Assembly: GCF_013315695.1 (NCBI RefSeq)
Contig: NZ_CP054353.1
Origin: Escherichia coli
GTDB taxonomy: Bacteria > Pseudomonadota > Gammaproteobacteria > Enterobacterales > Enterobacteriaceae
Strand: one strand, 5' to 3'
Length of the DNA: 64,000 nt
Shown here one piece after another: positions 7,026 through 7,314 of this stretch. How positions within the stretch are numbered: the first letter of the stretch is position 1; every line of letters starts with the position of its first letter. The notes under the pieces were generated by a model. It was not told the origin of the DNA. It saw only the letters and a program-made list of their open reading frames with translations, and ran no database searches. Position numbers and translations under genes: made by a program.

Positions 7026-7217
7026 GTAAACTCCACCTATAGACAAGCGCAACCAGACAATTACCGTGAAATTGAGCGACATTTCTGGCGATAATTAGCA
7101 GTTGGTGTAATATTAAAAATCCTGCGATGCTGGCAAAATGCCTCAAAATTTTGCCAAATGCAAAGCCTAAATAAGAAAAAATATAAAAATTTCAATATTT
7201 ACGTCTAATATTAGTTT

Positions 7218-7234
7218 CTTAAGGTTAAGTTAAT
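7218..7234 (+). promoter_or_regulatory. putative PmrA (BasR) box upstream of arnB
   Basis: CTTAAG-GTTAA-GTTAAT, two hexamer half-sites with 5-bp spacer, about 80 bp upstream of the arnB ATG in the divergent ais/arnB intergenic region. Confidence 0.5.
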
Positions 7235-7314
7235 ATTCTATCCTTAAAATTTTGCTCCAAATGGCAAAATATACACAACACTCTTTATAGCAAATATAAG
7301 TGGACAGGTATTCA

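Follow-up and report, generated by a model that had tools for sequence, protein, structure and literature searches.

The spacer between the divergent ais and arnB genes of Escherichia coli raises the question of whether the TTAA-rich direct repeat within it is the site from which PmrA (BasR) activates the arnBCADTEF operon, and whether such a site serves one promoter or both. We addressed this in a window of 64,000 nucleotides, meaning the whole stretch of DNA that was analysed. The window is E. coli chromosome and is collinear over its whole 64 kb with MSB1_4I, from which it differs at just four single bases (11346, 32135, 35104 and 57614). The window and MSB1_4I thus seem to be two separate sequences from one clone, and they share the stop codon in ais. 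A 1-kb stretch at ais/arnB finds a match in 5,418 of 5,426 complete E. coli genomes, and in MSB1_4I the identity is 100%. Because the two sequences are collinear with only four single-base differences, the RefSeq annotation of MSB1_4I can be transferred to the window. It gives the order nudI, ais (pseudogene), arnB, C, A, D, T, E and F, with pmrD on the opposite strand and, beyond it, men, ela and nuo genes, lrhA, alaA and ackA-pta. K-12 shows the same arrangement, with ais and arnBCADTEF pointing away from each other and a convergent pmrD behind the operon. The genes concerned are the following.

6423–7025, minus strand: ais (pmrG), pseudogene, GTG start, LPS core heptose(II)-phosphate phosphatase
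7333–8472, plus strand: arnB, 379 aa from the ATG at 7333 (the ATG at 7315 gives 385 aa)
8476–9444, plus strand: arnC, with 3 nt between arnB and arnC
9444–11426, plus strand: arnA, 1-nt overlap with arnC (TAATG)
11423–12313, plus strand: arnD, 4-nt ATGA overlap with arnA
12313–13965, plus strand: arnT, 1-nt overlap with arnD
13962–14297, plus strand: arnE, 4-nt overlap with arnT
14297–14683, plus strand: arnF, 1-nt overlap with arnE
14677–14943, minus strand: pmrD, 88 aa, convergent with arnF

The seven arn ORFs are in canonical order, intact and free of internal stops, have the lengths known from K-12, are all named by PGAP and differ from their K-12 counterparts by 0–10 amino acids each. 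A first-pass annotation, made from the sequence alone, had described these genes as tightly coupled. This is correct, and the stop/start overlaps that it listed from arnC/arnA to arnE/arnF were all found (1, 4, 1, 4 and 1 nt). It had also placed pmrD at the 3' end, where the gene is indeed present, but on the minus strand and convergent with arnF. The last 7 nt of the two genes are shared between the strands (14677–14683), and read-through of the arn transcript would therefore be antisense to pmrD. The further claim that the window holds the complete lipid A Ara4N modification system did not stand. The annotation of the collinear MSB1_4I region, which covers the whole 64 kb, contains no ugd/pmrE, basR, basS (pmrAB) or eptA; ugd is the supplier of UDP-glucuronate. 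Since ugd and basRS are absent, the part of the system carried by the window is the arn operon and pmrD, and, as in K-12, ugd, basRS and eptA map to other parts of the chromosome.

The start of arnB determines how long the control region is. PGAP places it at 7333; the start annotated in K-12 RefSeq falls on 7315 of the window. An AAGGAA Shine-Dalgarno sequence before the MS(E/D)F start at 7333 recurs across the loci inspected, and the ATG 18 nt further upstream is present in just 3 of the 80 loci listed and lost or interrupted in the other 77; in the C. freundii group, the upstream ATG is followed by an in-frame TGA. Because the Shine-Dalgarno sequence is conserved and the upstream ATG is missing or interrupted in 77 of these 80 loci, sequence comparison favours the ATG at 7333 over that at 7315 as the most likely start, which would make 7026–7332 (307 nt) the most likely extent of the non-coding spacer. 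The spacer had earlier been described as AT-rich and 289 bp long. Its composition bears this out (31.8% GC vs 51.3% for the window) and the length fits the ATG at 7315, but 307 nt is the likelier figure.

Within this spacer, the candidate site lies on the arnB strand.

7218–7234, plus strand: very probable PmrA/BasR box, composed of CTTAAG (7218–7223), the spacer GTTAA (7224–7228) and GTTAAT (7229–7234)

The two half-sites are on the same strand in direct (head-to-tail) orientation, with a 5-bp spacer (11 bp centre to centre), and the 17-mer is identical in K-12. A study of EPEC O125ac:H6 also names this 17-mer, in the regulatory region of arn, as the PmrA consensus "with a slight modification" (PMC10729948). 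The coordinates and sequence proposed for the box in the first-pass annotation were exact. The fit to YTTAAK-N5-YTTAAK is imperfect in that half-site 2 begins with G, not Y, which is the one mismatch to this consensus. With one mismatch allowed, the consensus gave 6 matches in the window against 3.0 expected, and 10 of 100 shuffles reached at least 6, so that this count is not significant alone. We replaced this loose scan with the verified Salmonella form and a position weight matrix (PWM). Verified Salmonella PmrA boxes are summarised as CTTAAG, 5 bp and XTTAAT in a paper on the PmrA DNA-binding domain (PMC3973317). The box fits CTTAAG-N5-NTTAAT exactly and is its sole match in the 64 kb, with 0.01 expected. 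The PWM was derived from 35 distinct arnB upstream boxes of genera other than Escherichia and Citrobacter among the loci listed. Coming from orthologous arnB promoters, and hence partly dependent on the site under test, it ranked 7218–7234 first of 127,968 positions with 20.49 bits, followed by a runner-up with 11.60 bits. Such a scan had been suggested as a check when the box was first proposed, and the box passes it far above background (mean −28.3, sd 9.0).

The box is strongly conserved. A 33-mer centred on it, detectable by this search only where the box is intact, was found exactly in 5,374 of the 5,426 complete E. coli genomes and with an intact core in at least 5,398, whereas position 7253, 19 nt downstream of the box, is polymorphic in E. 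coli. For comparison across species we used 80 arnB loci listed from species genomes, 78 of them with a full upstream region and Salmonella not among them. With at most one mismatch, a box on the arnB strand was present in 72 of the 78 Enterobacterales loci listed, compared with 7.0 ± 2.6 in composition-matched shuffles of the arnB upstream regions. On the opposite strand 46 of the 78 loci listed also score, but CTTAAG and TTAA are palindromes, so that this strand is no independent control. In Klebsiella, the scan recovered the footprinted box (CTTAATATTATCCTAAG) at −170 from the start codon, as published, which validates the method. The distance from box to start codon varies from −115 to −327 among the loci listed. 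The distance to the −10 region is fixed, with TAnnnT lying exactly 10 nt past the box in 68 of 70 cross-species boxes (loci listed) and at any other offset tested, from 5 to 16, in at most 2 of the 70. A fixed 10-nt spacing to TAnnnT is the signature of a class II activator site with the box in place of the −35 element.

Several of these loci show features of their own. In Citrobacter amalonaticus (L008), an insertion of ~210 bp (~1290–1490) separates the arnB promoter from the start codon, and the box lies at −327 there; the insertion may resemble an ERIC/IRU repeat (…CTCACCCCAGTCACGTACTCATGTACGCTCCAGGGGA…). In L005–L013, L019, L093 and L094, an extra CTTAA-type half-site is found 8–16 nt upstream of the box, for example catCTTAAGttCTTAAGGTTAAATTAAT, and in Citrobacter and one further genus it may represent a third PmrA half-site. 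We considered the metagenome contigs L093 and L094 as possible Salmonella and rejected this assignment, as their ArnB is clearly diverged from that of the S. typhimurium structure 1MDO and belongs to another genus. One more metagenome match (L098) lies inside an apparent coding sequence and was discarded as a chance hit.

The PmrA boxes of Salmonella enterica pbgP(pmrH)/pmrG, genes that are likewise arranged divergently, have reportedly been described in earlier work; compared by rule, their CTTAAG, 5-bp spacer and XTTAAT fit the box of the window. Box1 of Klebsiella pneumoniae pbgP (CTTAAT-ATTAT-CCTAAG), which was footprinted and studied by NMR (PMC3973317), shares with it the direct repeat, the 5-bp spacer, the arnB strand and a TAnnnT at +10 nt. 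The two differ in half-site 2 (CCTAAG in Klebsiella, GTTAAT in the window) and in distance from the start codon (−170 and −115, respectively). Klebsiella has in addition a PhoP box and a second, PhoP-dependent promoter that E. coli lacks (PMC2565834). A search for a PhoP box at the arn promoter of the window found none, the best candidate having 3 mismatches, which agrees with the reported lack of direct PhoP control of the E. coli arn promoter (PMC2565834). The layout also recalls the pho-box promoters of PhoB, where tandem direct repeats with an 11-bp period stand in place of the −35 element and leave 10 nt between their end and the −10 hexamer; a head-to-tail dimer has been documented for both PmrA and PhoB (PMC3973317). 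As half-site sequence and regulator are different, this likeness would be an analogy of mechanism and not membership in the same family of sites.

Transcription start sites could be transferred from K-12, the alignment being ungapped with record position = window position + 2,358,595. In a Cappable-seq re-analysis of K-12 MG1655 (PMC12987492, Table 1), the primary start of arnB is given as 2365854 (+) and that of ais as 2365723 (−); these data are from K-12 under antibiotic stress, that is, from another strain than the window, and include no pmrA mutant comparison. For arnB they define the following elements.

7245–7250, plus strand: arnB −10 hexamer TAAAAT, 10 nt after the box
7259 (A), plus strand: arnB transcription start, K-12 Cappable-seq position 2365854 via the ungapped alignment
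7259–7332, plus strand: arnB 5' UTR, 74 nt (56 nt with the ATG at 7315)

The promoter thus reads, from left to right, box (7218–7234), 10-nt spacer, TAAAAT, 8-nt discriminator and +1 at 7259. Comparison with mapped arnB starts had been proposed as a further check of the motif. The mapped start adjoins it, with the box spanning −41 to −25 and centred at −33, which is a class II activator layout. We looked for a −35 element in the arnB promoter and recognised none (7224–7229 reads GTTAAG), and the mapped start is 9 nt from the −10 hexamer instead of the usual 7. K-12 and the window show 8 differences across the 351 nt compared, but the 17-mer box, the −10 hexamer and both start-site bases are identical. 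Two of the differences are close to the start sites: the window has T where K-12 has C at 7253, in the discriminator between the arnB −10 hexamer and the start site, and again at 7131, 3 nt downstream of the ais start site as counted along the plus strand. An Rfam search of 6000–8000 (E ≤ 1) returned no family match. Promoters proposed by a simple sigma70 scan (+7066, −7207 and −7136) were rejected, as none of them matches the mapped starts at 7259 and 7128.

Taken as a whole, the evidence makes 7218–7234 very probably the site at which PmrA (BasR) binds the arnBCADTEF promoter. In E. coli MG1655, PmrA dependence of ParnB has been reported, with induction of ParnB-gfp needing pmrA, pmrD and phoP (bioRxiv 10.1101/2020.05.05.080051), and PmrA binds the orthologous Klebsiella and Salmonella boxes (PMC2565834, PMC3973317). 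In the literature searched we found no experiment on the binding of PmrA to precisely this E. coli DNA, and we infer that PmrA would bind directly to 7218–7234. Phosphorylated PmrA would arise when PmrB senses Fe3+, Al3+ or mild acid, or would be stabilised by PmrD under PhoPQ-inducing conditions. It would then occupy the two direct-repeat half-sites as a head-to-tail dimer, with the box standing in for the −35 element 10 nt upstream of TAAAAT, and would recruit sigma70 RNA polymerase in a class II, PhoB-like manner for initiation at A7259. A single mRNA would run from arnB to arnF, and the 1- or 4-nt stop/start overlaps would provide translational coupling.

A different model has been proposed for atypical EPEC O125ac:H6, in which PmrA on the box keeps RNA polymerase away from the promoter, and expression of arn requires QseB~P, phosphorylated by PmrB, to bind in place of PmrA. 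In that strain, a ΔpmrA ΔqseC double mutant shows a 16-fold increase in colistin MIC and constitutively elevated arnB and eptA expression, QseB~P shifts a 60-mer identical to 7197–7256 of the window in an EMSA, and BPROM puts promoter elements within the PmrA site (PMC10729948). However, the EMSA oligonucleotide holds the entire PmrA box and was tried with QseB~P, not with PmrA, so the experiment cannot tell the two regulators apart. Since PmrA and QseB are close paralogues, QseB acting at the same box would add to activation by PmrA and not supplant it. The pmrA gene is required for induction of ParnB-gfp in MG1655, the orthologous Klebsiella box drives a PmrA-dependent start site (PMC2565834), and the constant 10 nt to the −10 element in 68 of the 70 boxes from the loci listed is the geometry of an activator site and not of an operator. 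Because the activator geometry is conserved and induction in K-12 depends on pmrA, a promoter blocked by PmrA and activated by QseB is the less likely general model, and we consider it improbable for the window. The remaining reading, a chance match without regulatory role in a spacer of 32% GC, could appeal to the frequency of TTAA words in AT-rich DNA and to the insignificant count with the loose consensus, but it is effectively refuted, with a negligible probability, by the uniqueness of the stricter verified form, the 9-bit lead in the PWM scan, the invariance of the box in >99% of E. coli genomes while 7253 varies, and the retention of position, strand and −10 spacing across dozens of genera in which the box lies anywhere between −115 and −327 relative to the start codon.

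We return to PmrA as the activator of arnB and turn to the other side of the spacer, where the divergent ais promoter was located as follows.

7128 (A), minus strand: ais transcription start, K-12 Cappable-seq position 2365723 via the ungapped alignment
7135–7163, minus strand: putative ais core promoter, −35 TTGCAT (7163–7158), 17-nt spacer, −10 CATTTT (7140–7135)

The assignment of the two hexamers is our inference. Besides the box, only two blocks of the spacer are conserved between Escherichia and Citrobacter, GCAAAATGCC (7133–7142) and AAATGCAAA (7156–7164), and these hold the ais hexamers. Both the arnB and the ais promoter are non-consensus, as expected of activator-dependent promoters. 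We searched the spacer with the PWM for a second PmrA box that could serve ais and found none; the best other site (7.6 bits, 7101–7117, minus strand) lies downstream of the ais start. The box at 7218–7234 is centred at −98 relative to this start and may also drive the ais promoter. From the ais −10 block (GCAAAATGCC) to the box, the distance is exactly 85 bp in six lineages, namely E. coli, E. albertii, two Citrobacter species and two metagenomic Escherichia-like contigs, even though the intervening sequence has strongly diverged. In three other lineages it is 86, 75 and 64 bp, which corresponds to changes of ~0, 1 and 2 helical turns (loci compared: L003, L004, L008, L011, L088 and L092–L097). 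This is suggestive of, and compatible with, a helical-phase constraint, with two informative indels only. It is therefore possible, though we propose it tentatively and consider it somewhat less than an even chance, that a single PmrA box serves both promoters, in class II fashion at arnB (−33) and, at ais (−98), from a distance and in dependence on the helix face. In the window, the ais promoter would yield only mRNA for a truncated product of 32 residues.

This truncation is caused by a single base and distinguishes the window from K-12.

6927–6929, minus strand: TAG stop in ais (W33*), codon 33, C→T at plus-strand position 6928

The 200-aa frame of ais is collinear with K-12 Ais apart from this stop, and PGAP annotates the MSB1_4I gene with an "internal stop". 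The suggestion in the first-pass annotation that ais is inactivated is thus confirmed by the in-frame TAG at codon 33 and by the PGAP call in the near-identical MSB1_4I. In the closest genome, MS 21-1, only 6928 differs over the 1,001 nt compared, and codon 33 is TGG. The mutation hits a Dcm site at its inner C, so that CCAGG (6927–6931) in the wildtype has become CTAGG in the window, and deamination of 5-methylcytosine at Dcm sites is the classical amber hotspot of E. coli. A 61-mer that includes the stop is matched exactly in 10 of the 5,426 complete genomes. It lies on at least 3 haplotypes, which show 11 and 24 differences from the window over 1,461 positions. Since the base is the C of a Dcm site, a known amber hotspot, and the stop is found in at least 3 haplotypes, the simplest explanation of W33* is recurrent mutation at a deamination hotspot.

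Ais (PmrG) acts on the LPS core, outside the cytoplasm (PMC8129183), and the hydrophobic N-terminal segment of the protein, just before the stop, is probably a signal peptide. As the stop follows this segment, no exported Ais enzyme would be made. Retained ais function, whether the TAG is an assembly error or is overcome by read-through or re-initiation, appears very unlikely. A single base separates the stop allele from the intact allele, and a 163-codon ORF with a TTG start persists downstream (6423–6914). Yet the same TAG is present in MSB1_4I, seemingly a different sequence record with its 4 differences in 64 kb, and in nine other complete genomes, and a re-initiated product would have no export signal although Ais acts outside the cytoplasm.

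The arn promoter is the switch for intrinsic chromosomal polymyxin/colistin tolerance in E. coli, and its correct annotation is useful in this respect. The box, the operon, the PmrA dependence and the exact 17-mer are already known from the literature, so our findings on the box leave current knowledge unchanged. The only unusual feature of the control region is the stop codon that inactivates ais next to it. This strain-specific loss could have a slight effect on the charge of the LPS core and on tolerance of Fe3+/Al3+, but leaves Ara4N addition untouched. The recurrent loss of ais at a Dcm hotspot, the constant spacing between box and ais promoter and the start codon of arnB are minor side points.

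The spacer also contains four copies of the 7-mer GCAAAAT/ATTTTGC (7133–7139, 7148–7154, 7249–7255 and 7264–7270). They form two palindromes with 8-nt centres, one at the ais −10 element and spacer and the other at the arnB start site, which we could assign to no known regulator. Furthermore, 7141–7154 and 7242–7255 form a direct repeat with 13 of 14 positions identical, and the first copy of the 7-mer alone is conserved outside Escherichia.
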